Shown: positions 4,852 to 34,448 of the stretch, in pieces | Position numbering within the stretch: the stretch's first letter is position 1 | Layout of the letters: the number at the start of each line of letters is the position of its first letter | NCBI GenBank assembly: GCA_963786195.1 | Contig: CAWAYH010000009.1 | Location: 457,011 to 521,010, forward strand | Direction of reading: 5' to 3' | Length of the DNA: 64,000 bases | Origin: an uncultured Acidobacteriota bacterium | GTDB taxonomy: Bacteria > Acidobacteriota > Vicinamibacteria > Vicinamibacterales > 2-12-FULL-66-21 | Program-made: the position numbers and the translations under genes | The notes under the pieces: model-generated | Seen by the model: only the letters and a program-made list of their open reading frames with translations | What the model was told of the DNA's origin: nothing | The model's database searches: none

Positions 4852-6101
4852 GCCTTTTTGTCCCCAATCAGGCTGGCGCCCGCGCGCGCGGCTGCACCGT
4901 CCGCTGTCAACCCCTCGTACACCGACACGACCTCGGAGGCGAGACGGTCGGGATCGAACAGTCGGCAGGCGGCAACGCGCGCCTGAGTTCCCAGGCGCTG
5001 CCGCAAGCCGACGTCAGCAGAAAGTCGTGCGATGCCGGCCGACAGCGACTCGACGTCGCCCGACCGGTACGTCAGCGCGTCGCTCTCCGGCTCGACGAGC
5101 TCCGCGGCGCCGCCGGTCGCCGGCGTCATCACCGCACGGCCGCAGGCCATGGCCTCGGCAATGACGAGCCCGAACGGCTCAGGCTGCGTGCTCGCGTGCA
5201 CCACGATGTCGAGCGCCCGCAGGGCACGCGCGGCCGGCAGGAAGCCCGTGAAGCCGACGCGCTTGTGAACGCCGAGCGTCCGCGCAAGCCCGCGCAGCTC
5301 TCCTTCCGTGTACTCGCTGCCCTCCGTCGCGTATTGCGGTCCACCAATGATGTAGCCGCGAATCTCACCACGATCGCCAAGCGCCGCCATGGCGCGCAGG
5401 AACAGCTCGTGGCCCTTCCACCTGGCAAAGGTCGCGACGAGACCCACTCGAACGGTCGACGGAGTCGCCGGACCGAGCCCCGCCCGGACGTCGAGGTTCT
5501 CGGCGGGGCCGTCGGGAGCGAACGTGCTGAGGTCGACCGCGTTATGGATCACGTGCATCGGGACGGTCGGCGTGAGCGCGGTCGCGGCGTCATCCGCGAC
5601 GCTCGCCGAGTTCGCAAGGATCGAGGCGACACGCGGCTGAGAGAATCTCAGGAGCGCGCGTGAAATTCTGCGAGGGCTGAGGTATTCGTGCAGATGCCAG
5701 ACGACTTTCACTTCGGGCCCGACGCGGGCGCCCAGCACATGCGCCTTGATCCCGTTGGTGTGGAGGATCGCGGGCCGGCTCGCTCGAACGGCCCGCCGCA
5801 GGCGGCGAAGGTAGGACGGCAGCGCCGCCGCGACGGGTACCAGCCGCGCGCCCATCCTCACGCCGGACACGAGCCCGCCCGGAGCAGTCGATTCGCCGAG
5901 CCGCGTCAGCGACTCCGGAAACGGAACGACGACGCAATCCGCGCCCGCCGCTTCCGCGCGCGCCAGCAGCGGCCCGCGCCCCGGCAGAATCACCTGAAGC
6001 GTCCACGACGATCGGAGACGACGCACGCCCTCGATCATGCTGATGAGCGCGGTCTCCGAGCCGCCGAGGCCGTCCGACACGCTGTAGTACGAGATACGCA
6101 T
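4848..6101 (-). CDS. GT4-family glycosyltransferase (intact, 417 aa)
   Basis: Uninterrupted ORF. MRISYYSVSDGLGGSETALISM... and C-terminal ...FGLVIAEAMACGRAVMTPATGGAAELV are the GT-B / GT4 E-x7-E region. Confidence 0.8.
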   Translation of the reverse strand: MRISYYSVSDGLGGSETALISMIEGVRRLRSSWTLQVILPGRGPLLARAEAAGADCVVVPFPESLTRLGESTAPGGLVSGVRMGARLVPVAAALPSYLRRLRRAVRASRPAILHTNGIKAHVLGARVGPEVKVVWHLHEYLSPRRISRALLRFSQPRVASILANSASVADDAATALTPTVPMHVIHNAVDLSTFAPDGPAENLDVRAGLGPATPSTVRVGLVATFARWKGHELFLRAMAALGDRGEIRGYIIGGPQYATEGSEYTEGELRGLARTLGVHKRVGFTGFLPAARALRALDIVVHASTQPEPFGLVIAEAMACGRAVMTPATGGAAELVEPESDALTYRSGDVESLSAGIARLSADVGLRQRLGTQARVAACRLFDPDRLASEVVSVYEGLTADGAAARAGASLIGDKKA

Positions 6102-8859: not shown

Positions 8860-9696
8860 TTAGAACAGACGGGAAAGAACCTCGACCGAGTCGCCAGGCA
8901 GCACGGAATCGTCCGGCTTCACGTCCTTGATGACGAGCTGCTTGCCGTTGACGATCCGCGTGATGCGGATGCGATTCCTGGATCCCTTTTCGGTCACGCC
9001 GCCCGCCATCGACAACGCTTTCGCGACCGTCATGCCCGGCTCGTGGATGAACGGGCCGCCGTTGCGCACGTAGCCCGTGACGAAGAACGTCTCGGCCTTG
9101 GGCACGAAGATCGTGTCGCCGTCCGACAGCGTGATGTTCTGCGCGCGGCCGCTCTGAATGTCGGCCATGCTGACGCGCTCGGCTCCGGCCGGCGCCGTGC
9201 CGGGTGCGGTGCCGGACGGCGGATCGGCTGGCGCACTGGAGCCACGAACGCGGCGATTGATTTCGATGTAGGCGCCTGCGTCGGGCGTGGGCGAACCGGC
9301 TCTCGCGAGCGCTTCGGTGACGGTGAGTGTACCCGAGAGCATCACAGCGCCTGGCGTGCGGACCTGGCCCCACACGTAGACGACCTGACTGCGGTACGAC
9401 TCGACCTCCACGGACACCTGCGGATTGCGGAGGAAGTCCTTCTTCAGACGTTCCGTGATGTCCTGCTGGATGGTGCGCAGCGTCAGGCCGCCCGCCTTGA
9501 CGATGCCGATGAACGGATAGTCGAAGGTGCCGTCGCTGCCCACCGTGACGAGCTTCGTCAGTGTCGGCTCATCGAACACCGTGATGGAGAGACGATCCTG
9601 GGGCCCGACCAGGTACTCGGGAGAGGCCTGCGGCTTGGGGACGGTCTGCATCGAGGCCGCGGCCGTCAACGCGATCAGGAGAATCAAGAGAGGCAT
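8860..9696 (-). CDS. Polysaccharide export protein (Wza/GumB/EpsA-like periplasmic exporter)
   Basis: Intact 278-aa ORF with signal peptide MPLLILLIALTAAASMQ. PEYLVGPQDRLSITVF is the Poly_export motif. Two SLBB-like repeats: ...GAVMLSGTLTVTEALARAG and GMTVAKALSMAGGVTEKG. Confidence 0.85.
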   Translation of the reverse strand: MPLLILLIALTAAASMQTVPKPQASPEYLVGPQDRLSITVFDEPTLTKLVTVGSDGTFDYPFIGIVKAGGLTLRTIQQDITERLKKDFLRNPQVSVEVESYRSQVVYVWGQVRTPGAVMLSGTLTVTEALARAGSPTPDAGAYIEINRRVRGSSAPADPPSGTAPGTAPAGAERVSMADIQSGRAQNITLSDGDTIFVPKAETFFVTGYVRNGGPFIHEPGMTVAKALSMAGGVTEKGSRNRIRITRIVNGKQLVIKDVKPDDSVLPGDSVEVLSRLF

Positions 9697-9699
9697 GAA

Positions 9700-10908
9700 T
9701 CACAACCCATACGCCACCGACCCGAAGACCCGGGTTCGATCGTACTGACGCTCCGCTCGATCGCTGGTTCGCTGTGCGTACTCGACGTCCACTCCAACGC
9801 GGAGGTTCGGGCGGAAACGGTAGCCAACGCCGGCACCGAACGTCGTCGCGCGATCGGTGCGGGCTTCCTCGAAAGGTTCGAACGTGCGGTACGCGAGCTG
9901 ATCGAATCCGAGGGTGCCGCGCACGTCGAGGTACTCGTTCAGCTGCTGTGTTACCGTCAGCCGCAGTCCGGTTCCAATGTAGTACGGATCCGCGGGCTCG
10001 AACGAGTATTGCACGTCACGCGAGAGGGTGAGATCGAACTTCGTCCACTCCGCGAGAGTGTAGGTCAGCGAGCCGCGCGCGACCACGCCCGTGTAGCCCG
10101 CCAGCAGCGGGTCGTCCGGTTCGAAACGCCGGTAGCCCACCATGAACGTCCCCTGGATGATCGCCGGGGCGTCGAACTTCAGCGACGGCAGGATCTCGAA
10201 CGAGTCGGCATTGCGCTCCGGTGATTGCTCGAAGCGGTCGCGCACGAACGTACCCGTGACGGTGAGCGTCGTCAGCGGCGTCAGGTAGAACTCGAGCCCG
10301 CCGTCGACGGTGTTCGTCGTCGAGTTCATCGTCTGGCTGATGGGTACACCCTCGAAGATCGAGCCCTCTTCGAAGTCCAGGCGGGAGTGCCGGGCATTGA
10401 AGACGAGACCGGTGCGCGGCGAGACCAGCACGCGCGTGCCCCCGGCCACCGACGTCTGGGTTCGCGGCGCGCGGATGTCGAGCTCCGCGTTGAGCCGATC
10501 GTGGGTATTCAGGTACGACGCGGAGACGTACGGGCGAAACAGGCCCAGCTCGAAGTCGCCGCGCACGTCCGTGTTGAAGTTGATCGAGCGCTCCTCGTCG
10601 AATTCGTGGAAGTACACGAATCCCGTCGCCACCGAGCCACTCAGCTGCACGTACCGTGAGCGCAGCCTCGCGAGCAGCCGCGGGACGATCGTCATCGTGA
10701 AATCGTCACGGGGGTCGACGGCATCGTTGAAGACGTTCGAGTCGACGCCGAACTCGGTGATCGAGAGCGTCGGGCTCAATCCCATGGGGCCGAAGCGAAA
10801 CTGCATCGACTCCAGCGGATCCTGATCGGGAGCGGACGGCTGCGCCCACGCGATAGAGGCTGACAGGTGCATCGCCAGGCCGATCGGCAGAACTCGTCGA
10901 AGCTTCAT
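9700..10908 (-). CDS. Outer-membrane beta-barrel protein associated with the EPS locus
   Basis: Signal peptide MKLRRVLPIGLAMHLSASIAWAQ. Alternating amphipathic beta-strand pattern throughout. C-terminal ...VFGSVAYGL ends in an aromatic residue, typical of OM barrels. Stop overlaps the start of the downstream regulator (ATGA). Confidence 0.6.
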   Translation of the reverse strand: MKLRRVLPIGLAMHLSASIAWAQPSAPDQDPLESMQFRFGPMGLSPTLSITEFGVDSNVFNDAVDPRDDFTMTIVPRLLARLRSRYVQLSGSVATGFVYFHEFDEERSINFNTDVRGDFELGLFRPYVSASYLNTHDRLNAELDIRAPRTQTSVAGGTRVLVSPRTGLVFNARHSRLDFEEGSIFEGVPISQTMNSTTNTVDGGLEFYLTPLTTLTVTGTFVRDRFEQSPERNADSFEILPSLKFDAPAIIQGTFMVGYRRFEPDDPLLAGYTGVVARGSLTYTLAEWTKFDLTLSRDVQYSFEPADPYYIGTGLRLTVTQQLNEYLDVRGTLGFDQLAYRTFEPFEEARTDRATTFGAGVGYRFRPNLRVGVDVEYAQRTSDRAERQYDRTRVFGSVAYGL

Positions 10909-11879
10909 GACACGCGCGACGGTTTGAGCCGGGTGATGCCGAGCTGACGGATCTTGCGATAGAGGTTGGCGCGCTCGATGCCGAGCGTGCGCGCGGCGTC
11001 GCTCATGCGCCAGCCGTGCTCCTGCAGCACGGCCGCGATGTAGTCGCGTTCGAATGACAGGCGCGCCTCTCGAAGCGTGCCGGACGAGACGACGGGGCGC
11101 GGCTGCGGCCGCGGCGGCTGCAGATCGCCGAGGACGTCCTCCTGTCGGATGACTCCTGACGTCACGCCGGTCACGAGCCGCTCGAGTACCCGCCGCAGCT
11201 CGTCAAGGTTCCCCGGCCATGGCAGCGCCGTGAGCGCGGTCAGCGCCGCCGGCGCGAGCGTCCGCTCCGTCTGGTGTTCGCGACACACTTCGTCGAGCAC
11301 CGCGCGGACAATCGCCGGCAGATCGTCGCGGCGTTCGCGCAACGACGGAACATCCACGCGCAGGCGCTGCAGCCGTTCGTAAAGGTCGCGGCGGAACCGC
11401 TGATCGGCGACGTCGTGCTCGAGTCCCGGATGCGCCGCGCCGACCACGCGAACGTTCAGCGCCGTCGTCCGCGAGCCGAGCCGCATTTCGCCGTCACGCA
11501 GGAGCCGCCACAAGCGGAGCTGCGCCGCCGCCGGCAACTGCGCGATGTTGGACAGCAGCAGCGTGCCGCCCCGCGCGCGGGCCAGGAGGCTCCCGCTGTC
11601 GACGGTCTCGAGGTCCGTGCGACGGCCAGGCGTACGCCCGAACAGATCGCGAACGGCGTGGTCCGCGGACCGGTCGGCACAGTCGAACGCGCAGAACGGG
11701 CCCGCGCCGTGGATCGCGCGCGCGATCCGCTCGGCGTTGAACCCGCGCTCGGCCACGATCAGCACGGGATCGTACGAGCGCGCCGCCCGGTGGACCGCGT
11801 CCGCCGCGACGATGACGGCGGGGGATTGTCCGAGGAGCTCGGGGGGCAGCATGGATGACAGCTCCGCCCCGTCAGTCAC
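10905..11879 (-). CDS. Sigma-54-activator-like (NtrC AAA+ family) transcriptional regulator with degenerate ATPase motifs and intact Fis-type HTH; no receiver domain
   Basis: AAA+ sigma-54 interaction-domain architecture ending in HTH_8 (ARTLGIERANLYRKIRQLGI). The Walker-A position reads AERGFNAE instead of GESGTGKE. The GAFTGA loop is replaced by LFGRTPGR. An alternative ATG start is at 11852 (MLPPELLG). Confidence 0.65.
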   Translation of the reverse strand: MTDGAELSSMLPPELLGQSPAVIVAADAVHRAARSYDPVLIVAERGFNAERIARAIHGAGPFCAFDCADRSADHAVRDLFGRTPGRRTDLETVDSGSLLARARGGTLLLSNIAQLPAAAQLRLWRLLRDGEMRLGSRTTALNVRVVGAAHPGLEHDVADQRFRRDLYERLQRLRVDVPSLRERRDDLPAIVRAVLDEVCREHQTERTLAPAALTALTALPWPGNLDELRRVLERLVTGVTSGVIRQEDVLGDLQPPRPQPRPVVSSGTLREARLSFERDYIAAVLQEHGWRMSDAARTLGIERANLYRKIRQLGITRLKPSRVS

Positions 11880-11894
11880 ACGGGGCGACGCACC

Positions 11895-11923
11895 ATCCTC
11901 GCAGGATCGGCCGGGTGTGTCAA
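11895..11923 (-). promoter_or_regulatory. Possible sigma-70-like promoter (TTGACA-17-GAGGAT) for the regulator/OM-protein/exporter operon
   Basis: Minus-strand TTGACA at 11918-11923, 17-nt spacer, GAGGAT at 11895-11900. The -10 element is weak. Confidence 0.2.
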
Positions 11924-11958
11924 TAAGGATACATGGGATGTTGCATCGGCGATACAGC

Positions 11959-12880
11959 CTAACCGCCGCGCAACCGCCGTCCCAGCCACCGGAAGGGGCG
12001 GCCCGCCTGGTGGCGCAGCGTCCGTTGCTGCTTCAAGACGCCGCCGGGAAAACGGTCGTCGAACGTCGCGAGGTCCGCGTCGCGATCGCGGACGATGCCG
12101 ACCGGATGGCGCAGCTCGGCCTCGAGCTGGCCGATCGGGCGATTGGCCAGCGATCCGCCACCCAGCGTGTGTGTCGCGCCCGACCCGAACCCGATGTTCG
12201 AGACCAGGTTGACGGCGGGATGAATGGACAACGCCTGAGTCATGCAGGCGTACATCCACGCGTAGTCCCACACCGGCGTCATCCGGCCATGGTGCATCTG
12301 GTCGAACACGTCGAACCAGTACTCGCGCTCGTCATCTGAGTCGAACAGCTCTCGCGACTCCGGCTGCGATCGAAACGCGGGCCATGTCCTCAGATCGATG
12401 TCGAAGCGTTCCCACGCCCGCTTCCACGTCGCCCATCCCCAGACCAGCGGGTATTTCGAGAACAGGTACGAACGATCGCCGCGTCGAACCGGCTGGTAGC
12501 TTTCGCCGCTGATGTGCATCACGCGGTCGTCGAGTGCAAATCGTTCGAGCAAGGTGTCGCAGAAACCAAAGAACCGCTCAGAAGGCAGGCAGTCGTCTTC
12601 GAGCACGATCGCGCGATCGCAGGAGCCCAACACCCAGTCGAGCGCCGTCGTCACTCGCGCGGTGAGCCCCATGTTCCGCTCGGACAGGTCGTAGGCGACG
12701 TCGGCGCTCCAGTCCACCTGTTTCACGATGTCGCGCACCGCCTCGCAGGACGGCCGCTCGCCTGCGTTCGCGGGACCGTCGGTTGCGACGAAGAGACGCT
12801 GGGGACGGACTCTTGCGATCGCGTCCATGACGCGCTTGGTGGTCTCGGGCCGCCTATACGCGATCAGAAGAACGTTCATT
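11959..12880 (-). CDS. GT-A fold nucleotide-sugar transferase (HlpA-like glycosyltransferase)
   Basis: Real protein starts MNVLLIAYRRPETTKRVMDAIARVRPQRLFVATDGPAN... and carries DDCLP (DxD-like) and ...VWGWATWKRAWERFD. The ORF-track N-terminal 330 aa are antisense/read-through of the next gene. Confidence 0.55.
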
Positions 12881-13883
12881 CTTGAATCAGCGCCATCAGG
12901 CGCGCGGCCACCTGGGACGGATGATACAGACTGCCCACGTGCTGCCGACAGGCTTGCGAGCGCGCGCGCCACTCGGCGTCGTCCTCGAGCAGGCGCGTGA
13001 CGGCCCGCGCAAACGCGCGCTGATACAACCAGCCACCTGGACGACCGGCGATCAGCACACCATGCTCGCCGACGGTGGTTCGCAGCGCAAACGCCCGCGT
13101 CGTGACGGGCACTGCGCCGGCAGCCATGCACTCGGCAGCCGCCAGGCAGAATCCTTCCGGAAAGTGACAGGGATACACCATGACTTTCGCCCGCGCCTGC
13201 TGTTGCACGAGCGCCGGCCGCGGGATGTGCCCGAGGTACTCGATGCCCTGCTGACCCTCGAAGAATCGTTCGAACGCGTGCTGCGCCGAGGGCTTCGCCC
13301 AGAGGCTGAAATCCGAGGTGATCACCAGCCGGGCAGAGGGAACGCGCCGGTGAATACGCGGAAAAATGTCCTTCAGGTAATAGAGCCCGCGATCCGGGAC
13401 CGAGCAATACAGGAGCACGTTGTCGCGGGTTGCAGGTGCTTCGCGATAATCGTCGAGGCCCACCGGCGCACCGACAACGCTGATCGTGCCGCGACCGGTC
13501 GCCCGCTCGATCTGCGCGCGCTGAAAATCGGACAGCGCGCACACGTGATGCGCCCAACGCCGGCAGCGAACGATCGCATCGGGGTCCGGCACGTGAACGT
13601 CGGTCGCGAGGAATACGCGTGTGGCTCCGCCATCCCCGGCTGCGCTCGACCACTGCTTCACCAGCACGACGATTCCAGCGCGCTGCCCAACTGGTGCAAT
13701 CGGTTCGTAACGCACACCGTTCTCGAGCGTGACGGACGGCACTCGGGTCGAGACGATGACCCGCCGGCCCTGGCGTGTCAGCTCCTCGGCGAGGAGGACG
13801 ACGAGCGCCTCGGTCCCACCGACACCGGCGTTGTGGTAGGCGCCACCGGTGAAACCGGGATCGAAGTCGCACAAGAACTGCAC
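12876..13883 (-). CDS. GT4-family glycosyltransferase
   Basis: VQFLCDFDPGFTGGAYHNAGVGGTEALVVLLAEELTRQGRRV (GT4 N-terminus); C-terminal ..YPCHFPEGFCLAAAECMAAGAVPVTT. The probable start is a GTG near 13883, downstream of the ABC-transporter stop. Confidence 0.7.
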   Translation of the reverse strand: MQFLCDFDPGFTGGAYHNAGVGGTEALVVLLAEELTRQGRRVIVSTRVPSVTLENGVRYEPIAPVGQRAGIVVLVKQWSSAAGDGGATRVFLATDVHVPDPDAIVRCRRWAHHVCALSDFQRAQIERATGRGTISVVGAPVGLDDYREAPATRDNVLLYCSVPDRGLYYLKDIFPRIHRRVPSARLVITSDFSLWAKPSAQHAFERFFEGQQGIEYLGHIPRPALVQQQARAKVMVYPCHFPEGFCLAAAECMAAGAVPVTTRAFALRTTVGEHGVLIAGRPGGWLYQRAFARAVTRLLEDDAEWRARSQACRQHVGSLYHPSQVAARLMALIQE

Positions 13884-15770: not shown

Positions 15771-16880
15771 TCAGCCCAGCCGCTGAATCCAATTTGCCAG
15801 CTCTCGCGTCTTGTCCTCCGCTCGATAGGTCAACGCGACGGCGTGTGCCGCGTCGCCGAGCCGGCCGCGGAGGGCCGGGTCGCCGTCGAGACGCGCGACC
15901 GCGTCCACGATCGCCGGAGCGTCGCGCTTCCCAACGAGAATCGCGCTCTCCTCGTGCGTCAGCGCGTCGATCGCGACACCGACCTGAGTCGTGACGATCG
16001 GCAGCCGCGCGGCCATGGCTTCGAGCAGCGCCATCCCGAATCCCTCGTAGAGGCTCGGGAACAGGAAAATGTCGGCCTCCCGATACAGCGCAGGCAGCGC
16101 CGCACGTTCGACGCGCGGATGGACGTTAATACGTGAGCGAATGGCGGGAGGAAATGCCGACACGATCGCGGCCGCATCCGTCAGCGTGCCCGCACAGACC
16201 AGCCGCATGTCTGGATGACGCGGCGCCAGCTGGATGAACGCGTCGCGCAGGTACTCCACGCCCTTCATCTCCAGCCACTGCCCCACGTACAACAGCGTGC
16301 GAACAGGCCGAGCCGTTCTGGCTGGGGCGAAGAACTCGTCCGGAACGCCGTGAGCGAATGTCCGGATCCGATCGGATCGGGCCCAACCGTGCTCCAGTAG
16401 ATACGCCTGCTCGGCGCTGTTCAGGCACGCGACCCCGGTTGCGTGCTGACACGAGCGTCGCAGGAACACCGGCATCAATCGCTCCTGGAGCATGCGATAC
16501 CGCCAGCTGAGCCCGGTCGACTTGCGCATCTCCTCGAGCAGCTCCCGATGGTAGAGCGGTTCGAGCCCATGGAACGCGACGACGGTTTTCAGCTCCCCCG
16601 AAGCCGTCGCCGGCCCGGCAAGCCAACCGGCATAGCTGTGAAAGACGACCAGATCCAGGTCGTTCCGGTGCGCACCCACCCAGCGCCGCACCGCCAGCGG
16701 ATACACGAGCGGCGTCCAGCGGCCGCCGGCTCGCCGGGCAAGAAGATCGTCGGGCGTGACCATCGCCACGACGCAGCCACGCTGCGTCAACTCACCCGCC
16801 AGGGTTTGATAGGTCAGGAATACAGAGGACTGCGGATCGCCGGGGGTCTGGAGAACGATTGCTATTCGTCGGTTCAATGG
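15771..16880 (-). CDS. GT4-family glycosyltransferase
   Basis: (L)NRRIAIVLQTPGDPQSSVFLTYQTLAGELTQRG...; C-terminal ..IFLFPSLYEGFGMALLEAMAARLPIVTTQVG. The same reading frame continues upstream into the E1-beta C-terminus without a stop. This is interpreted as a lost stop, not a fusion. Confidence 0.6.
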   Translation of the reverse strand, partial: PLNRRIAIVLQTPGDPQSSVFLTYQTLAGELTQRGCVVAMVTPDDLLARRAGGRWTPLVYPLAVRRWVGAHRNDLDLVVFHSYAGWLAGPATASGELKTVVAFHGLEPLYHRELLEEMRKSTGLSWRYRMLQERLMPVFLRRSCQHATGVACLNSAEQAYLLEHGWARSDRIRTFAHGVPDEFFAPARTARPVRTLLYVGQWLEMKGVEYLRDAFIQLAPRHPDMRLVCAGTLTDAAAIVSAFPPAIRSRINVHPRVERAALPALYREADIFLFPSLYEGFGMALLEAMAARLPIVTTQVGVAIDALTHEESAILVGKRDAPAIVDAVARLDGDPALRGRLGDAAHAVALTYRAEDKTRELANWIQRLG

Positions 16881-19332
16881 TTCAGTAGGCCGACGAGCAG
16901 CCGCGCCGCGCGCTCGATTTCCGCTTCTCCGGGCAGGAACGACTGCCTCGAGCGGCGGCGAGTACGGGACCGGCGTGTCGAGCGCGCCGATGATGCGGAC
17001 CGGCGCGTCGAGCGACTCGAACGCCTCTTCCTGGATGATCGCGGCGAGGCTCTCGCCGATGCCGCCCGTGCGCGTGTCCTCGTGCACGATGAGGACGCGG
17101 TTGCAGTGCCGCGCCACGGCGAGGACGGCGTCGCGGTCGAGCGGCGCGAGCGACCGCAGATCGAGCACGCTCGCCTCGATGCCGTCGGCCGCGAGCCGCT
17201 CGGCGACGCGCATGGCGGCGTGGACGTACGCGCCGTAGGAGATGATCGCGAGATCGTCGCCGGCGCGGCGCAGCGCGGCCTGGCCGATCGGCGATCGGCG
17301 CGGGCGGCTCGCCGTCGAGCTCCTGCTTGATGCGCGGATCGCGGTAGAGCGCGATGTGCTCGTAGTAGAGGACCGGATCCGGATCGGCGACGGCCGCCGC
17401 CATCAGCGCGCGCGCGTCGGCCGGCGTCGACGGGACGACGATCTTCAGCCCGGGCGTGCGATAGAACCACGGCTCGGTGTTCTGGCTGTGGTACGGCCCG
17501 GCGTGCCGCAGACCGCCCCACGGCATGCGCACGACCATCGGGCACCGAGCCGCCCCAGCGGTAGCGGATCTTCGCGGCGTTGTTCACGAGCTGGTTGAAG
17601 CCGGTCGCGACGAAGTCGTTGAACTGCATCTCGCCGATCGGCCGCTGGCCGGCGAGCGCGGCGCCGACGCACACGCCGAGCACCGCGCCCTTCGGCGAGC
17701 GGCGAGTTGAGGATGCGATCGCCGAACGTCTCGAGCAGCGGCCGCAGCAGCAGGAACGCGTTGCCGTACTCGCCGCCGACGTCCTCGCCGTAGACGAAGA
17801 CGCGCGGATCGGCCGCGAGCGCGTCGCGGAGCCCGAGCATGACGCCTTCGAGGAACGTGCTGCCCTTCGGATCGAACGGCGGGCCCGTGTCGAGCGGCGG
17901 CAACGGCGCGGCGAGTCGACCTGCGTCGCGGACCTGCGGTTCGAGCACCTCGACGCGCCCGCGCGGCGGCTCGTCCGGCGAACACACCCCGCCCCGCCTC
18001 GTCCGGCATCGGGCCACGGCGCGTCGATGACCGCCTGCGCCTCGCGCCTCGACCAGCGCCTCGGCCTCGCGCTTGCAAGCGATCGAATCGCCCGCCTCGA
18101 TCAGCCCCTCGCGCTCGAGCCGCGTGCGCGTACGAGCGGAATGCGGATCGCGCGCCGACCAGAAGGCGTAGCAGCTCGGGGTCGGCGTAGCCCGGCGCGA
18201 CGAGCGGCGGATACTCCCACGACGGCTGCGGATCCTTCCCGAGATAGAGCATGTCGTCGTGGTGCGCGTGGCCGCACATGCGCATGCACACGAGCTCGAT
18301 GAGCGCGGGGCCTTGCCCGTCGCGCGCGCGTTCGACCGCCCACGCGAACGCCGCGGCGATCTCGTCGGGATCGGTGCCGTCGATCGTGATGCCCGGAATG
18401 CCGTAGCCGGCCGCCTTGTCGGCGAACACGCGGACGGCGGACTGATCGCGCGACCGGCGTCGACAGCGCCGTCTGGTTGTTCTGCACGCAGAAGACGGCC
18501 GGCAGCCGGCGCGCGGCGCACAGGTTGATCGCTTCGTGCCATTCGCCGAGCGACGAGCCCCCTTCGCCGATGAACGACAGCGCCACGCGGCCGCTTCCCT
18601 CGCGCGCGAACGCCATCGCCATCCCGGCGATCGTCAGCGTGCCGATCGCCAGCGGCGCGGCCGCCGGCAGGATGCCCGAAGTCGAAGTCGCCGATGTGCA
18701 GGTCCTTGCCGTTCATCGGCGGGCCGGCCTTGGCCATCTGCGCCGAGAGCACCATCCGGACGGTCTCGCGGCGCCGGCCGCATCGCCAGCGCGACGCCCA
18801 GATCGCGGATGAGCGGCGCGACGACGTCGCCGCGCCAGCCCGTCGGCGTCGCGGTACGCGTCGCCGCGGCGCAGCCGGATGCCGGCCGCGTAGATCGCTT
18901 CCTGCCCGAGCGATCGGAATCCCTTGCCCTGGAACGGCGCGTCGCCGTAGCGGACCTCGCCGCCGGTGAAGAACGTCTTCAGCCGGTTGTCGGTCGCGCG
19001 CGTCAGGACCATGCCGCGCAGGATCTCGCGGCGCTCGTCGCGGCGTGAGCGACGCGCGGATCGCCGCGCGGCGCAGGAAGCCGTCGCACGCGTCGACGAT
19101 CTCGTCGACGGCCGCCGCGAACCGCTGCGGCGCCTCGACACCCGGGGTCGTTTCGTCGATCGGCGGGGGCGAGCGCCTGCAGTTCGCGGCGCAACGAGGG
19201 TCCGAATGCGTGTCGCAGCCGCTCGAGTGTCGCCTCGTCGGCGTCGTTGCCGATCTGAACGCCGCACGACGCGAGCGCGCCGCGGACGACCTGTAGCGCA
19301 AAGGGGAACCGCTCGATGACGAAAGCCTCGAG
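16877..19332 (-). CDS. 2-oxoacid (pyruvate/branched-chain) dehydrogenase E1 component, alpha and beta fused; heavily frameshifted
   Basis: Alpha pieces: EILRGMVLTRATDNRLKTFF..., ...SFIGEGGSSLGEWHEAINLCAARRLPAVFCVQNNQTA, ...GIPGITIDGTDPDEIAAAFAWAVERARDGQGPALIELVCMRMCGHAHHDD. Beta pieces: KGSTFLEGVMLGLRDALAADPRVFVYGEDVGGEYGNAF, MQFNDFVATGFNQLVNNAAKIRYRWGG, ..RMPWGGLRHAGPYHSQNTEPWFYRTPGLKIVVPSTPADA, C-terminal ..DAPVRIIGALDTPVPYSPPLE. The pieces are scattered over all three frames. Confidence 0.55.
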
Positions 19333-23271: not shown

Positions 23272-25770
23272 ATGGACACTCTCAGGCAGGACATCCGGCA
23301 CGGCCTTCGTGCGCTCCGCAAGAGCCCGGCCTTCACCCTCACGGTCGTCCTGACGCTCGGCCTGGGCATCGGCGCCAACGCCGCGGTCTTCAGCATCGTC
23401 AACACGCTGCTGCTGCGGCCGCTGCCGGTCTCCGACCCCGACCAATCTCTACGTGCTCGCGTCACGCACCAGGACAACGAGCAGCCGCACCGGTCTCGTG
23501 GACCGACTTCGTCGACTACCGGGACCGCACCGGTCTGTTCTCCGATCTCTGGCCGCCTACGCCATCGGCTTCGCGGGTCTCAGCGCCGACAACCGCGCCG
23601 ACCGCATCAGCCGTCGCGTACGTCACCGGCAACTATTCTTCTCGATGCTCGGGATTACGCCGGCGCTCGGCCGCCTGATTCAGCCCGGCGGAAGGCGACG
23701 ACGTTCGGCGCGGACCCGATTGTCGTCCTCGGACACTCGTACTGGAAGAAGCGCTTCAACGGCGATCCGTCGGTCGTCGGACGCACGGTGCTGGTCAACG
23801 GCCAGCCGTTCACCGTCGCGGGCGTCGTTCCCGAAGCGTTTCTACGGCGTCTACGCGCTCGTCGAGTTCGACGCGTACCTGCCGCTCGGGATGATCTTCC
23901 GCGAGTCGGCGTACAAGGAAATGATCGAGCGGCGCGACAACCACGAGCTGCGCGTGATCGGCCGGCTGAAGCCGGCCGTTTCGCTGGCGCAGGCGCAGGC
24001 GGCGCTCGACGTGCTCGCGCGGTCAGCTCGAGCAGCAGTATCCGGACACGAACAAGACCGTGCGCGCACGCGTCTGATCCCGGAGACGTCTCGCGCGCCC
24101 GGAGCCGAACACCGCGGACAGCAACCCGTTCGTCGCGGGGGTGTTCCTGCTGCTCGTCGGGCTCGTGCTGCTCGTGGCCTGCGTGAACGTCGTCAACCTG
24201 CTGCATGGTCCGCGCGACGGTGCGGCAGCGCGAGCTGGCGCGTGCGCGCCGCGCTCGGCGCGGGCCGGCGCCGGCTCGTGCGGCAGATGCTGACGGAGAG
24301 CCTGCTGCTGGCACGTCGCGGGCGGCCTGGCCGGCGCGGTCATCGGCCGCTGGACTGAGCGGCCTGCTCGCGCGGATCAAGCTGCCGGCCGATCTCCCGA
24401 TCCGCTTCGATCTCGCCGTTCGACTGGCGCGTGTTCGCGTACATCGCGGTGGTCGCGCTCGGCACGGGGCTCGTCGGTCGGCCTGCTGCCGGCGTTGCGC
24501 GCGTCGCGCACGGACCTGAACGAGGTCCTGCGCGAAGGCGGACGCAGCATGGCGGACGGCAGCGAGCCGTCAGCGCCTGCGCAAGCGCGCTCGTCGTCGC
24601 CCAGGTCGCGGTGTCGCTCGTGCTCCTGGTCGCCGCCGGGCCTCTTCGTGCGCAGCGTCCAGCGCGCGCAGTCGATCGATCTCGGGCTTCGACTCCCCAG
24701 CACGTGCTGAACCTCGTCGATGGACGTCTCGCAGCAGGGGTTCGACGAGGCGCGCGGCCGCGCGTTCTATCGGGAGGTCGAGGCGCGCGTCCGGCCGCTC
24801 CCCGGCGTCGAGTCGGTCAGCTACGCGTATTCGGTCCCGTTCGGCTACTACAACTCGAGCGAGAACGTCGAGGTCGAAGAGCATCCGGTGCCGAAGGACC
24901 AGCGGCCAAGCCGAGCGGCCGGCTACAACGTCGTCGGGACCCGACTACTTCCGCACCATGAAGATGCGCGATCGTCCGCGGCCGCGCGTTCACTCCCCGA
25001 AGACGACGAACGGCGCGCTGCGCCGTCGCGATCATCAACGAGCTCATGGCCGACCGGTTCTGGCCGGGGCAGGATCCGATCGGCAAGCGATTCCGCACGA
25101 CAGGCCAACACCACGCAGTGGCTCGAGGTCGTCGGCGTGTCGGGACCGGGCAAGTACAACTACATCTTCGAGGATCCCGGGCGCCTACTTCTTCATCGCC
25201 GATCGCACAGCACGTACCGCGCGCTGCGCGTGCTGCAGCTCCGCACGGCCGGCGCGCCCGAGGCGCTCGCGCCGCGCGGCGCAGCGGGAGATCCGGGCGC
25301 TCAATCCGGATCTGCCGGTGTACGACGTGCGGTCCATGGAGCGAGATGCTTCGAGGGCCGCAACGGGTTCTTCCTGCTGAAAATGGGCGCGCTCTTCGGC
25401 GGCGGCCTCGGCGTGCTCGGCCTGGTGCTGGCGCTCGTCGGCATCTACGGCGTCGTCTCGTACACGGCGAGTCCAGCGAACGCAGGAGATCGGCGTCCGC
25501 ATGGCGCTCGGCGCCCAGCCGCGCGACATCCTGCGCCTCGTCGTCGGCCAGGGGCTCGCGCTCGTCGGCGGCGGCATCGCCCTCGGCCTCTGCGCGGCAT
25601 TCGGCATCTCGCGGCTGCTGGCCAACCTGCTGTTCGGCGATCTCCTCGACCGATCCCGCTGACCTTCGTGCCGCGTCCCGCTGATCCTCGGGTCGATGGC
25701 GCTGCTCGCGTCCTACCTCCCGGCGCTCCGCGCGACGCGCATCGATCCGATGCTGGCCCTGAGGGAGTAA
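23272..25770 (+). pseudogene. ADOP-family FtsX permease paralog, broken by many frameshifts (pseudogene or error-laden region)
   Basis: Recognisable pieces in all three + frames: MDTLRQDIRHGLRALRKSPAFTLTVVLTLGLGIGANAAVFSIVNTLLLRPLPV; FGADPIVVLGHSYWKKRFNGDPSVVGRTVLVNGQPFTVAGVVPEAF; FYGVYALVEFDAYLPLGMIFRE...; VRQMLTESLLLA; [27 protein letters not shown]; ends ..[14 protein letters not shown]. Confidence 0.6.
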
Positions 25771-25850
25771 CGCGGCCAGCCGACCGCTTCCAGACCGCCC
25801 GGGTGACTGTAGTATGCTCTCCCCCGCATGTCTGCCAAGAGAGCGAGTCG

Positions 25851-27600
25851 GTGACGCCGCGCCATGACGTCGTCCTGGTCGGCGGCGGCGGCGCGGGTCT
25901 GCGCGCGGCCATCGCCATCGCGGAGACCAATCCCCGGCTGAGCGTCGCGGTCGTCTCCAAGGTCTACCCGATGCGCAGCCACACCGTCTCCGCCGAGGGC
26001 GGCGCCGCGGGCGTGGCGCGCGCGGACGACAGCCTCGACGAGCACGCCTACGACACCATCTCCGGCGGCGACTGGCTGGCGATCAGGACGCCGTCGAGGC
26101 CTTCGTCAAGGAAGCGCCCGAGGAGCTGCTGCGGCTGGAGCACTGGGGCTGCCCGTGGAGCCGCGAGCCCGACGGCCGCATCGCCGTGCGGCCGTTCGGC
26201 GGCATGAAGAAGATGCGCACGTGGTTCGCCGCCGACAAGACCGGCTTCCACATGCTCCACACGCTGTTCCAGACCTCGCTCAAGTACACGCAGCGTCACC
26301 CGCTACGACGAGTGGTTCGTCACGAAGCTGCTGGTCGACGACGGCCGCGTGCAGGGCGTCGTCGCGATCGAGCTGATGTCGGGCAAGGTCGAGGCGATCA
26401 CGGCCAAGGCGGTCATCCTGTGCACCGGCGGCTGCGGCCGCGTCTTTCCGTTCACGACCAACGCGAACATCAAGACCGGCGACGGCATGGCGCTGGCCTA
26501 CCGCGCCGGCGCGCCGCTCAAGGACATGGAGTTCGTCCAGTACCACCCGACCGGCCTGCCGTTCACCGGCATCCTGATCACCGAGGCGGCGCGCGCCGAG
26601 GGCGGCTACCTGATCAACAAGGACGGCTACCGCTACCTGCAGGACTACGACCTCGGCAAGCCGGAGCCGAAGCCGGTGCTCCGCAGCATGGAGCTCGGGC
26701 CGCGCGATCGGCTGTCGCAGGCGTTCGTGCAGGAGCTGGAGAAGGGCCGCACGATCGACACGCCCGTACGGCCCGGTCGTCCACCTCGACCTGCGGCACC
26801 TGGGCGAGAAGGTGATCAACACGAAGCTCCCGTTCGTGCGCGAGCTGTGCCTGAAGTACGCAGAACATCGATCCGGTCACGGAGCTGATCCCGGTGCGGC
26901 CGGTGGTGCACTACATGATGGGCGGCGTGCACACCGACATCAACGGCGCGACGCCGCTGGCCGGCCTGTACGCCGCCGGCGAAGTGCGCCTGCGTGAGCA
27001 TCAACGGCGCCAACCGGCTGGGCTCGAACTCGCTGCCGGAGCTGCTGGTCTTCGGCGCGCGCGCGGGCATGCGTCGCCGCCGAGTTCGCCTCGACGCACG
27101 GCAGGACGTCAGCCCGGCGATCGCTGGCGCAGGCCGAGGACGAAGAGCGACGTCTGGAGCAGGCTGTTCCAGCCGCAAGACGGCAGCGGCGAGCGCATCG
27201 CGACGCTCCGCGAGCGAGATGCAGAAGACGATGGAGGAGGGCGCCGGGCATCTACCGCACCGGGCGCGTCGCTCGCGCAAGCCGCCGACGAAGCTGCGCG
27301 AGCTGCAGGAGCGCTTCGGCCGACGTCGCCCTCGACGACCACAGCCGCACGTTCAACACCGAGCGCGTCGCCGCGCTCGAGCTGTCGTTCATGCTCGACG
27401 TGGCCGAGAGCGATCGTCGACAGCGCGCTGCAGCGCGAGGAGTCGCGCGGCGCGCACCAGCGCACCGATTTCCCGACGCGCGACGACGCAGCGCTTCCTT
27501 GCCGCATTCGCTGGTCTCACCGCAACGCCGACGGCTCGTGCCGGGTCGAGTACCTGCCGGTGACGATCACCCGCTGGCCGCCCGGCCGAGCGGGTCTACG
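25851..27600 (+). CDS. frdA: Fumarate reductase / succinate dehydrogenase flavoprotein subunit, frameshifted
   Basis: GTG start [22 protein letters not shown] (FAD dinucleotide fold). Further pieces: ..[10 protein letters not shown].. (His FAD attachment), [53 protein letters not shown]. Pieces sit in 3 frames. Confidence 0.7.
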
Positions 27601-27614
27601 GGAGGTAGGACTCG

Positions 27615-28340
27615 CATGGCGGACCGGCATCACGCTGCAGGTCGCGCGCTACCGCCCGGAGAGCGAGACGGCGCGCCGACGTTCCAGGAGTACGAGGTGC
27701 CGCTGCCGCAAGGACTGGGTCGTCCTCGACGCGCTGAACTACATCAAGGACCAGCTCGACGGCACGCTGTCGTTCCGCTGGTCGTGCCGCATGGGCATCT
27801 GCGGCAGCTGCGGCATGACCGTCAACGGCGAGCCGAAGCTGACCTGCGCCACCTTCCTGCACCGACTACGCGCCGGGGCCGGTCCGCGTCGAGCCGCTGC
27901 GCAACTTCCCGGTCATCCGCGATCTCGTCGTCGAGATCGGCGACTTCATGCGGAAGCTGACGCAGCGTCAAGCCGTGGATCATCCGCAAGCGAGGAGAAG
28001 CCGCTCTCCGAGGGCGAGTACCTGCAGACGCCGGAGGAGCTGGACGAGTACAAGCAGTTCAGCATGTGCATCAACTGCATGCTCTGCTACGCGGCCTGCC
28101 CGGTCTACGGGCTCGACCCGAAGTTCCTCGGCCCGGCGGCGATCGCCCTGGCGCAGCGCTACAACCTCGACTCGCGCGACGAGGGCGCGCGACGAGCGGC
28201 ATGGAGGTCCTCTCCGAGCACGAGGGCATCTGGGGCTGCACCTTCGTCGGCGAGTGCACCAAGGTCTGCCCGAAGCACGTCGATCCGGCCGGCGCCATCC
28301 AGCGCTACAAGCTGAAGGCCGCGGCCTGCGACTGGTGTCA
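27615..28340 (+). CDS. frdB: Fumarate reductase iron-sulfur subunit, frameshifted
   Basis: ..[68 protein letters not shown] (2Fe-2S), [12 protein letters not shown] and [17 protein letters not shown] (4Fe-4S / 3Fe-4S Cys clusters). Confidence 0.7.
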
Positions 28341-33088: not shown

Positions 33089-34448
33089 ATGATGGTCATG
33101 CCCACTGTGACCTGGAGCGGTCCGGCGCCGTCCGCAAGGCTCAATGCCCTCCTGAAAAGGCGCAGGATCGAGGTCAGGCCGACACCGAGCGTCGGCACGA
33201 TCCGGATCGTTCGGACCCGCACGGGGACGCGCGCGCCGCGGGCCCCGCACGAGCCGCGCTGGATCTGGTGGTCGGACGAGCCGGTCACGCAGGACCGCCG
33301 GCTCGACGCGGTGCTGCGGGGCGCGTACGACGTCATCGACGGTCGCCTGGACGACGGCCCCGCCCTGCTGGCATCGCGGATCGAGGAGCTGCTGACGCCC
33401 GAGGCGCCGGTCCCGGCGACGGACACGCTCGTGATGGTGAGCGACGCCTCGCGGCGTGTCGTGACGCAGGTGGCGCGCGTGGCCGCGACCTCCATGCCCG
33501 TGCTCGTCACCGGCGAAACGGGCACCGGCAAGGAGCTCGTGGCCCGGCTGATTCACGCCAGCTCGCCTCGCAAATCGAAGGCCTTCATCCCAATCAATTG
33601 CGCGGCTATTCCGAACGAGCTGATGGAAGCCGAGTTGTTCGGGTACGCGCGCGGTGCGTTTTCCGGCGCGGTGCAGCGCTATGACGGTCAGCTCATGGCG
33701 GCCGCCGGCGGCACGGTGTTTCTGGACGAGATCGACGACACGCCGCGCGGAGACCCAGGTCAAGCTGCTCCGCGTGCTCGAAGACCGCGTCGTCAGCCGC
33801 CTCGGCGAGAACGTCTGGCACGAGATCGACTTCAGGCTCATCGCGGCCACCAACCGCGACCTGCGTCCGCTCGTCGACGCGGGCCTGTTCGGCGCTGACT
33901 TCTACGAGCGGCTCGCCATCGTGTCGATTCATCTGGTGCCGCTGCGGGAGCGCCTGGACGATCTTCCGGACCTCGCGCGCTACTTCATCGCGCGCTTTGG
34001 ACGCGAGCAGGGGCGGCCCGCGGTGACGGGCATCCGGTCCGACGCGATCGATCGACTCCGCGCCTATCCGTGGCCCGGAAACATCCGCGAGCTGCGCAAT
34101 GTCCTCTACGAGACGCTCGTGTACAAGCGCGCGGGCAACGAGATTCTCCTGTCGGATCTGCCGCGGCGAATCCTCAAGGGCGAATGGACGACGGACGCCT
34201 CCGCCGTCGATCGCGGCATCATCGCGGAGCGAATCAAGGGGGGCCGCATGAACCTCCGCGACGAGGTGGCCGGGCTCGAACGCGTCGCGCTCGAGGAGGC
34301 GCTGGCGCGCGCCGGCGGCAATGCGGCCCAGGCGGCGCGGTTGCTGGGCGCGGTCGGCCGTGGCGCCGCCCGTGATCCCGGCGGCACCGTCCGGGCGATG
34401 CTGCGACGACTCGGGCAGAAGAAAAGTGCCCGGCGACCAACCATTTAG
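33089..34448 (+). CDS. Sigma-54-dependent Fis-family transcriptional regulator (one frameshift near 33745); N-terminal domain receiver-like but atypical
   Basis: VLVTGETGTGKELVARLIH (Walker A), INCAAIPNELMEAELFGYARGAFSGA (GAFSGA variant of GAFTGA), GGTVFLDEIDD (Walker B). Continues in the next frame with ..LLRVLEDRVVSRLGENVWHEIDFRLIAATNRDL.. and ends in HTH NAAQAARLLG. Confidence 0.7.

Follow-up and report, generated by a model that had tools for sequence, protein, structure and literature searches.

At the head of a polysaccharide-export cassette in an uncultured Acidobacteriota bacterium of the order Vicinamibacterales lies a gene for a regulator built like a bacterial enhancer-binding protein (bEBP), the sigma-54 class of AAA+ activators. 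We analysed the gene within a stretch of 64,000 nucleotides (contig CAWAYH010000009.1, positions 457,011 to 521,010; G+C content 68%), referred to as a whole as the window. The regulator gene is on the minus strand and is followed by genes for an outer-membrane beta-barrel and a polysaccharide export protein, and the 106-nt intergenic region before it (11853–11958) is dense in elements conserved among the orthologous loci compared (Table 1). Judged from its sequence and a structural model, the protein belongs to a stable family in which the AAA+ fold is intact and the catalytic and sigma-54-contact motifs are missing.

Table 1. The regulator gene, its upstream elements and the genes that follow (window coordinates; residues in the numbering of the 324-residue reading frame)
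Feature	Position	Strand	Sequence or motif	Remarks
Regulator coding sequence (atypical EBP, predicted catalytically dead)	10905..11852	minus		315 residues; ATG 11852, stop TGA 10907–10905; mechanical reading frame reaches GTG 11879
AAA+ domain of sigma-54-interaction type, degenerate	11355..11834	minus		Residues 16–175; PF00158, AlphaFold2 model, Foldseek
Walker A remnant	11730..11753	minus	AERGFNAE for GESGTGKE (GxxGxGK[ED])	Lys position is Ala; alignments
Former L1/GAFTGA loop region	11607..11645	minus	LFGRTPGRRTDLE	GAFTGA absent; varies among family members; pLDDT at its lowest for the AAA+ core; alignments and AlphaFold2
Walker B remnant	11544..11570	minus	GGTLLLSNI for GGTLFLDEI	Asp-Glu replaced by Ser-Asn; alignments
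Sensor II region	11196..11219	minus	WPGNLDEL	GNxRE replaced by GNLDE, Arg by Asp; alignments
Fis-type HTH (HTH_8)	10944..11054	minus	GWRM..AAR.LGI.RANLYRK.RQLGI	Near-invariant in the family; Pfam and family alignment
ops-like leader element	11859..11881	minus	GTGTGACTGACGGGGCGGAGCTG	GCGGAGC mini-hairpin 11861–11867; ends 6 nt before ATG 11852
Extended −10 (predicted)	11895..11903	minus	TGcGAGGAT	Hexamer GAGGAT, 3/6; same 17-nt spacing as in orthologs
−35 hexamer (predicted)	11918..11923	minus	TTGACA
Proximal palindromic operator (candidate)	11917..11932	minus	GTATCCTTATTGACAC	GTRTC-N6-GACAC; right arm holds the −35 TTGACA
Distal site (candidate)	11940..11955	minus	GTATCGCCGATGCAAC	Left arm GTRTC, right arm weakly conserved
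Second operon gene, outer-membrane beta-barrel (BBP2_2, EpsL-like)	9700..10908	minus		Start overlaps regulator stop (ATGA)
Third operon gene, Wza/EpsE-like polysaccharide export protein	8860..9696	minus		Poly_export and SLBB domains, synteny; GT4 glycosyltransferases follow

Domain architecture and motif losses of the regulator

The list of open reading frames (ORFs) gives the gene 324 residues from a GTG start (10905–11879, minus strand). The copy held in public databases has 315 residues, is 100% identical and begins at ATG 11852; because it begins there, and because the first nine codons counted from the GTG share positions with the conserved ops-like non-coding element, ATG 11852 is probably the true start. 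Pfam searches with the 324-residue ORF placed Sigma54_activat (PF00158, 89.7 bits) at residues 16–175, AAA_lid_14 at 181–259 and HTH_8, a Fis-type helix-turn-helix (HTH), at 276–312. No domain was found by Pfam N-terminal to the AAA+ module, which starts at residue 16, or residue 7 when counted from the ATG. The first-pass annotation, made from the letters of the window and their ORFs, had described just this sensor-less combination of sigma-54-interaction domain and Fis-type HTH.

Motifs were called from residue-by-residue HMMER alignments to solved structures of NifA, NtrX, ZraR and CapR/DmpR. The PF00158 homology and fold of a canonical bEBP are present, as are the arginine fingers (R163 and R169 in the RFRxDLYxRL segment), whereas Walker A, Walker B, GAFTGA and the sensor II Arg are all missing, as is a −24/−12 promoter at the operon. 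The L1 loop reads GRTPGRRTDL where canonical proteins have GHEKGAFTGA. The alignments bear out the Walker A replacement and the absence of GAFTGA noted in the first-pass annotation, and extend the loss to Walker B and sensor II, which had not been listed among its observations. Its expectation that Walker A, Walker B, GAFTGA and the arginine finger would all prove lost against AAA+ cores holds for the first three and fails for the fingers.

The same pattern runs through the family. In an alignment of 41 regulator homologs (53–71% identity), the Walker A Lys position is taken by P, A, S, L or V in every sequence, the Walker B Asp-Glu pair is kept in none and the sensor II Arg is replaced by Asp in 34. 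The degenerate P-loop has a conserved form of its own, VAExGF[S/C][P/A]E, the L1 loop varies, both arginine fingers are conserved in 40–41 of the 41, and the HTH is the most conserved portion of the protein. More than 1,600 homologs were scored, the best 120 of which are 53–71% identical, 286–386 residues long and equipped with the same domain set. An AlphaFold2 model computed from the family alignment has a mean predicted local distance difference test (pLDDT) score of 90.1, with dips only at residues 81–90, where the GAFTGA loop used to be, and in the linker before the HTH; its best matches in the Protein Data Bank (PDB), found with Foldseek, are NtrX, ZraR, VpsR (7v2b), NtrC1, PspF and FleQ.

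Gene decay, or normal motifs hidden by an error of frame or sequencing, would be in keeping with the apparent frame disruptions of other genes in the window, and the first-pass annotation had itself reckoned with a corrected reading frame; such an artefact can be excluded here, as the public protein is identical, full-length homologs share the replacements in 41 of 41 cases, the model is confident and the synteny is conserved. With the Walker A Lys, GAFTGA, Walker B Asp-Glu and sensor II Arg gone family-wide, the regulator cannot, on its motifs, be a conventional sigma-54 activator, in agreement with the earlier claim that it could not act on the sigma-54 holoenzyme. Nor, by profile scores, is it an NtrX ortholog, despite being labelled NtrX in IMG: full-length bEBP equivalogs of NCBIfam matched it only below threshold, the best of them, NtrX NF051870, reaching 180.3 bits against a cut-off of 600 and aligning over profile positions 137–452, the AAA+ and HTH part, and a receiver domain is lacking.

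The export cassette and the search for sigma-54 signals

A survey with one genome per species gave 61 orthologous loci, 58 of them under Vicinamibacterales or Acidobacteriota titles; the exceptions are titled as Actinomycetes, an unclassified bacterium and Desulfobacteraceae, and the latter two are the weakest matches of the 61. According to tblastn searches with the neighbouring proteins, the regulator is followed by the BBP2_2/EpsL-like beta-barrel, the Wza/EpsE-like exporter, a GT4 glycosyltransferase, in some cases an FkbM methyltransferase, and a further GT4 in about 55 of the 61 loci. The genes upstream vary by locus and include an ATP-binding cassette (ABC) exporter with a glycosyltransferase and a 308-residue protein, or pyruvate dehydrogenase genes. 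Since the downstream order is conserved while the upstream genes differ, the regulator is the first gene of a conserved polysaccharide-export cassette. In the window, its stop codon (TGA 10907–10905) overlaps the start of the barrel gene (ATG 10908–10906); orthologous loci have 24–110 nt between the two, and the overlap is therefore specific to the window genome, the co-orientation being what is conserved. Where the first-pass annotation had the regulator coupled to the exporter operon by a start codon overlapping the barrel stop, co-transcription with the barrel and Wza genes stands, and the gene order has to be reversed: the regulator lies upstream, and it is its stop that overlaps the barrel start.

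The neighbourhood was also searched for signs of sigma-54 control, as the earlier annotation had suggested for the exopolysaccharide (EPS) locus, with negative outcome. The consensus TGGCAC-N5-TTGCW, with at most 2 mismatches, matches 18 times in the window against 18.5 expected. No −24/−12 promoter is conserved upstream of the operon, as matches of any kind occur upstream of only 4 of 44 orthologs, and these are at scattered positions. The −24/−12-like match TGGGACGGCGGTTGCG at 11969–11984 was rejected, being one of the 18 chance-level matches, located in the 3' end of the upstream gene and not conserved. No rpoN gene was found in the 64-kb window. The supposedly intact bEBP at 33,089–34,448 on the plus strand, about 21 kb from the regulator, has GETGTGKE, GAFSGA, a Walker B DE and HTH_8, preceded by about 115 N-terminal residues without a Pfam match; it turned out to be split over two reading frames just past the Walker B motif, near 33750, and is thus either the product of an assembly indel or a pseudogene.

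Other genes of the window deserve mention. At 24720–28315 on the plus strand, the succinate dehydrogenase/fumarate reductase genes look frame-disrupted or fused, in that two ORFs divide FAD_binding_2 between them and a single ORF takes in both the C-terminus of the flavoprotein and the Fe-S subunit (Fer2_3); occurring alongside the frameshift of the bEBP, these disruptions suggest assembly indel errors. In the ORF at 15771–17213 (minus), about 90 residues of a Transketolase_C/pyruvate dehydrogenase E1-beta C-terminus, 76–95% identical across loci, are in frame with a GT4, probably reflecting a mis-set start or read-through of two neighbouring genes. The 308-residue protein directly upstream of the regulator (11962–12885, minus) has no Pfam or NCBIfam match and is conserved at 54–62% identity beside the glycosyltransferase and ABC exporter in many Vicinamibacterales loci.

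Predicted promoter, palindrome and leader element before the regulator

TTGACAC is found upstream of the regulator in 42 of 45 loci and is followed, after a 17-nt spacer, by an nAnnAT hexamer (CACAAT, GACAAT, GATAAT or CAGGAT in orthologs), with TG at −15/−14 in 23 of 43. This pattern predicts a conserved sigma-70-type promoter before the gene. GTRTC stands exactly 9 nt 5' of TTGACAC in 42 of 43 loci, and a further GTRTC is found 21–24 bp upstream of this proximal left arm in 39 of 43. While the TT of TTGACA is kept, the mirror positions beside the left arm vary, which indicates a genuine −35 box with a putative operator superimposed on it. Additional operator copies that might define a regulon were not evident in the window, which has 7 matches to GTRTC-N6-GACAC with at most 1 mismatch where 5.35 are expected; of these, only the copy at the promoter, 11917–11932, is perfect. 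In most orthologs (e.g., loci L009, L012 and L038), a C-rich box (cTCCCC) lies about 10–15 nt past the −10, near the predicted transcription start. Its window counterpart, CGCCCCG, is able to pair with CGGGGCG of the leader element described next, and consistent pairing of the two across loci was not found.

The leader contains a sharply bounded block of 23 nt that is unique in the window even at 3 mismatches. One same-strand copy precedes the regulator ortholog in 47 loci, with the invariant positions TG.T.AC..A..GGGCG.AGC. The core GCGRAGC is invariant in these orthologous loci and was itself part of the search pattern that retrieved at least 115 metagenome copies. It matches the hairpin YGCGNAGCR (GCGNAGC) that Bacteroides opsX forms in its non-template DNA strand and is similar to the sequence GCGGTAGC in the ops of E. 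coli (PMC11685472); GCGNAGC has been described as an 'extraordinarily stable mini-hairpin DNA' (PMC13037366). The window element has two hallmarks of an UpxY/RfaH-type ops site, namely a GCG-N(1-2)-AGC mini-hairpin on the non-template strand and a place in the coding-strand leader of a long polysaccharide operon.

Other roles for the block were considered and rejected. As a structured RNA or riboswitch it has no Rfam match, also as part of a longer block, no covariation with its flanks and leader folding that does not surpass that of shuffled sequences (mean z −0.75). A coding role as an N-terminal extension is at odds with the distance and frame to the start codon, which vary among loci. As a variant sigma-54 or extracytoplasmic function (ECF) promoter, its spacing superficially fits TG..AC-N7-GC, yet the −24 GG is T in 43 of 47 loci, and the conservation runs on through the would-be spacer. 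Since the structured-RNA reading failed on Rfam, covariation and folding, a site acting at the DNA level is preferred, and by analogy the element may act like ops, as a site of pausing or of NusG-paralog recruitment.

The scan of metagenomes for the ops-like motif gave at least 120 contigs of 32–71% G+C (loci L062–L181), in which the 21-nt motif TGTRACYSASRGGGCGRAGCT stands directly before genes for UpxY-family NusG paralogs or other polysaccharide genes. Among the matches listed, the ORF opening at the motif encodes an UpxY-family NusG paralog in 40 of 109 loci (NCBIfam NF033644, 118–122 bits against a cut-off of 100); other genes following the motif encode Wza-like exporters, sugar epimerases/dehydrogenases, and asparagine synthase-like and Cps4B-like proteins. 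The motif looks like an ops class widely shared across phyla. Also among the matches listed, the palindrome is present upstream of the ops-like element only where a member of the regulator family follows (5 of 5, against none of about 100 others). Across the 61 orthologous loci, whose upstream genes differ, the palindrome has no consistent partner among regulator genes apart from the family itself.

Several metagenome contigs hold relatives of the regulator. Locus L110 has two tandem units of ops-like motif, palindrome and regulator-family gene (1837–2874 and 5208–5891), and the encoded copies, with a half-degenerate P-loop (GEPGTGRG) and RN at Walker B, may be evolutionary intermediates. In other contigs of acidobacterial type, EBP genes adjoin operons with ops, UpxY and Wza: those of L079 and L117 contain a receiver and are GAFTGA-less and ATPase-competent, those of L082 and L153 are sensor-less with DAFAGA, and that of L128 is fully canonical. 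Such neighbours suggest that EBP-type regulators are linked more widely with ops–UpxY–Wza EPS operons. The intermediate forms in related contigs (GEPGTGRG with RN; GAFTGA-less and ATPase-competent) further suggest, at the sequence level, a stepwise degeneration of EPS-linked EBPs. In loci L121, L147 and L155, the ops-like motif is followed by 114-residue proteins that are essentially a Fis-type HTH_8 only; a bare HTH_8 regulator can thus take the first position in an ops-bearing operon.

Models for the control of the cassette

Atypical EBPs are an established category, in which TyrR, PhhR, HupR, HsfA, NtrX and VpsR are without GAFTGA and function either with sigma-70 or as repressors (PMC6158489). 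The regulator shares with them an EBP-type AAA+ module with degenerate GAFTGA and a C-terminal HTH, and it lacks the N-terminal sensory or receiver domain that is carried by NtrX, TyrR, PhhR, HupR and HsfA. It is an extreme new subfamily of these sigma-54-independent proteins, different from the known ones in having no N-terminal domain and in the joint loss of Walker A, Walker B and sensor II. NtrX of Brucella abortus provides both the best NCBIfam model and the best structural match, and GAFTGA is degenerate in the two proteins, but NtrX still binds ATP and ADP (titles of PDB entries 5m7n and 5m7p); NtrX represses at its own promoter (PMC6158489). VpsR of Vibrio cholerae likewise combines an EBP-type AAA+ module and an HTH without GAFTGA and the Walker B Asp-Glu, and it controls an EPS operon from a site in the −35 region of a sigma-70 promoter (PMC6158489), much as predicted for the regulator. 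VpsR, however, has a receiver domain, keeps Walker A, needs cyclic di-GMP (c-di-GMP) and is an activator, whereas the regulator is without an N-terminal domain, lacks the Walker A Lys and the sensor II Arg as well and has its candidate site across the −35 hexamer.

PspF of E. coli resembles the regulator in consisting of two modules, AAA+ and HTH, with no N-terminal regulatory domain, and it autoregulates its own promoter; unlike the regulator, it retains Walker A, Walker B and GAFTGA intact and is fully active as a sigma-54 activator, controlled in trans by PspA. FleQ of Pseudomonas aeruginosa is a bEBP that at pel and psl regulates EPS genes independently of sigma-54, binding palindromic boxes around a sigma-70 promoter as repressor or activator (cited in PMC6158489). 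It differs from the regulator in keeping all catalytic motifs, having an N-terminal domain, working with FleN and sensing c-di-GMP. The hairpin core of the window leader matches that of UpxY–opsX of Bacteroides and resembles that of RfaH–ops of E. coli, and its position between promoter and first polysaccharide gene is common to them (PMC11685472), while the 21-nt block, carried by contigs of 32–71% G+C, is distinct. Unlike UpxY–opsX systems, the Vicinamibacterales loci have no adjacent UpxY gene and no conserved upstream pause hairpin.

We somewhat favour a joint reading in which the regulator is a sigma-54-independent EBP derivative that heads the EPS export operon and autoregulates it, probably by repression, from a sigma-70-type promoter. 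Its own predicted promoter is most likely what the regulator controls. Negative autoregulation is the most economical account because the palindrome tracks the family, no other regulator is linked to it, the HTH is conserved and the site lies over the −35 box. The repressor half of the earlier proposal, that the protein is an anti-activator or a repressor, fits with this palindrome; the anti-activator half has no support beyond the retained arginine fingers, no sigma-54 promoter being conserved in 44 loci. Under negative autoregulation, the AAA+ fold would neither bind nor hydrolyse ATP in the canonical way nor contact sigma-54, and the protein would act through its HTH with no input domain. 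A dimer, or a larger oligomer joined through the pseudo-ATPase domain, would bind to two sites on one face of the helix, the palindrome GTRTC-N6-GACAC centred at about −36.5 over the −35 hexamer and the weaker site about 22 bp upstream. Occupancy of these sites, spaced by about two helical turns, could be cooperative with the help of the pseudo-ATPase domain, and a bound dimer would cover the −35 hexamer so that negative autoregulation of the promoter sets the expression of the operon. After initiation, the UpxY/RfaH-type ops element in the leader, should it function like its counterparts in Bacteroides or E. coli, would bring in a NusG paralog whose gene lies elsewhere and enable RNA polymerase to read through the long operon.

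Several points weigh against this account. The −10 hexamer of the window, GAGGAT, is weak and a simple sigma-70 consensus scan of 11600–12200 called no promoter, and the promoter call thus rests on comparative conservation. The distal site is a half-palindrome only, and the co-occurrence of regulator and palindrome could reflect shared ancestry of the promoter of one clade. The preference for repression over activation comes from just two features, the position of the site and the quality of the promoter, and activation in the manner of VpsR could equally explain the regulator and its palindrome. The retained arginine fingers could be a sign that the protein forms mixed oligomers with a working ATPase. 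Finally, tblastn and hidden Markov model (HMM) searches found no NusG or UpxY gene, either in the window or at up to 6 kb from the 61 loci.

Positive regulation is the most serious alternative, though we think it rather unlikely. From the same sites, the regulator would activate sigma-70 RNA polymerase, perhaps only with a ligand such as c-di-GMP or a nucleotide in the remodelled AAA+ domain, and so turn EPS export on. VpsR, which likewise has neither GAFTGA nor Walker B DE, binds beside the −35 of a polysaccharide promoter and activates it with sigma-70 (PMC6158489), and it is among the best structural matches; the weak −10 of the window could call for an activator, and the strong conservation of the AAA+ domain despite its dead motifs suggests a remaining role. 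The candidate site, on the other hand, is fully over a consensus TTGACA, a position typical of repressors, the regulator is without a receiver domain, and the window showed no signature of a diguanylate cyclase or phosphodiesterase.

We consider it improbable that the regulator is an anti-activator, i.e., a dead subunit that poisons sigma-54-dependent EPS transcription, either by joining the assembly of an active bEBP or by competing with it for the enhancer. Such a role would make sense of the conserved arginine fingers, which act in trans; a canonical bEBP is encoded 21 kb away, and in some other acidobacterial contigs GAFTGA-bearing bEBPs adjoin ops–UpxY–Wza operons. The conserved promoter predicted here, however, is of sigma-70 type, −24/−12 sequences are not conserved in the 44 loci and at chance level in the window, the candidate partner gene is frameshifted and not syntenic with the regulator, and rpoN is not in the window. 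Similarly doubtful is that the palindromes belong to another transcription factor and that the regulator acts elsewhere, at different promoters or as a scaffold of the export machinery that does not bind DNA. The roughly 13 kb examined per genome around the regulator loci leaves room for other sites or regulators, but the palindrome follows the presence of the regulator family and of no other regulator gene, and the HTH, its would-be reader, is the most conserved part of the protein.

More speculatively, the dead nucleotide pocket of the regulator may have been repurposed as a sensor of a small molecule (c-di-GMP, a nucleotide sugar or (p)ppGpp); the oligomeric state on the two operators would then gate the sigma-70 promoter and the ops site license full-length transcription. 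If true, this would be a one-component switch that looks sensor-less and part of a two-checkpoint circuit for EPS export, undescribed for Acidobacteria.

In public pipelines, the family goes under 'NtrX' or 'NtrC-family response regulator' or is handled as sigma-54-dependent. As the family is without the receiver domain and the catalytic and sigma-54-contact motifs, regulon predictions that count its members as sigma-54 activators are wrong. The family provides a clean natural case in which an AAA+ transcription activator has been pared down to a scaffold and DNA reader, conserved across an order of abundant soil bacteria. The anatomy of candidate operators, promoter and ops element provides a testable model for the control of EPS export in Vicinamibacterales, a process relevant to soil aggregation and biofilm formation.

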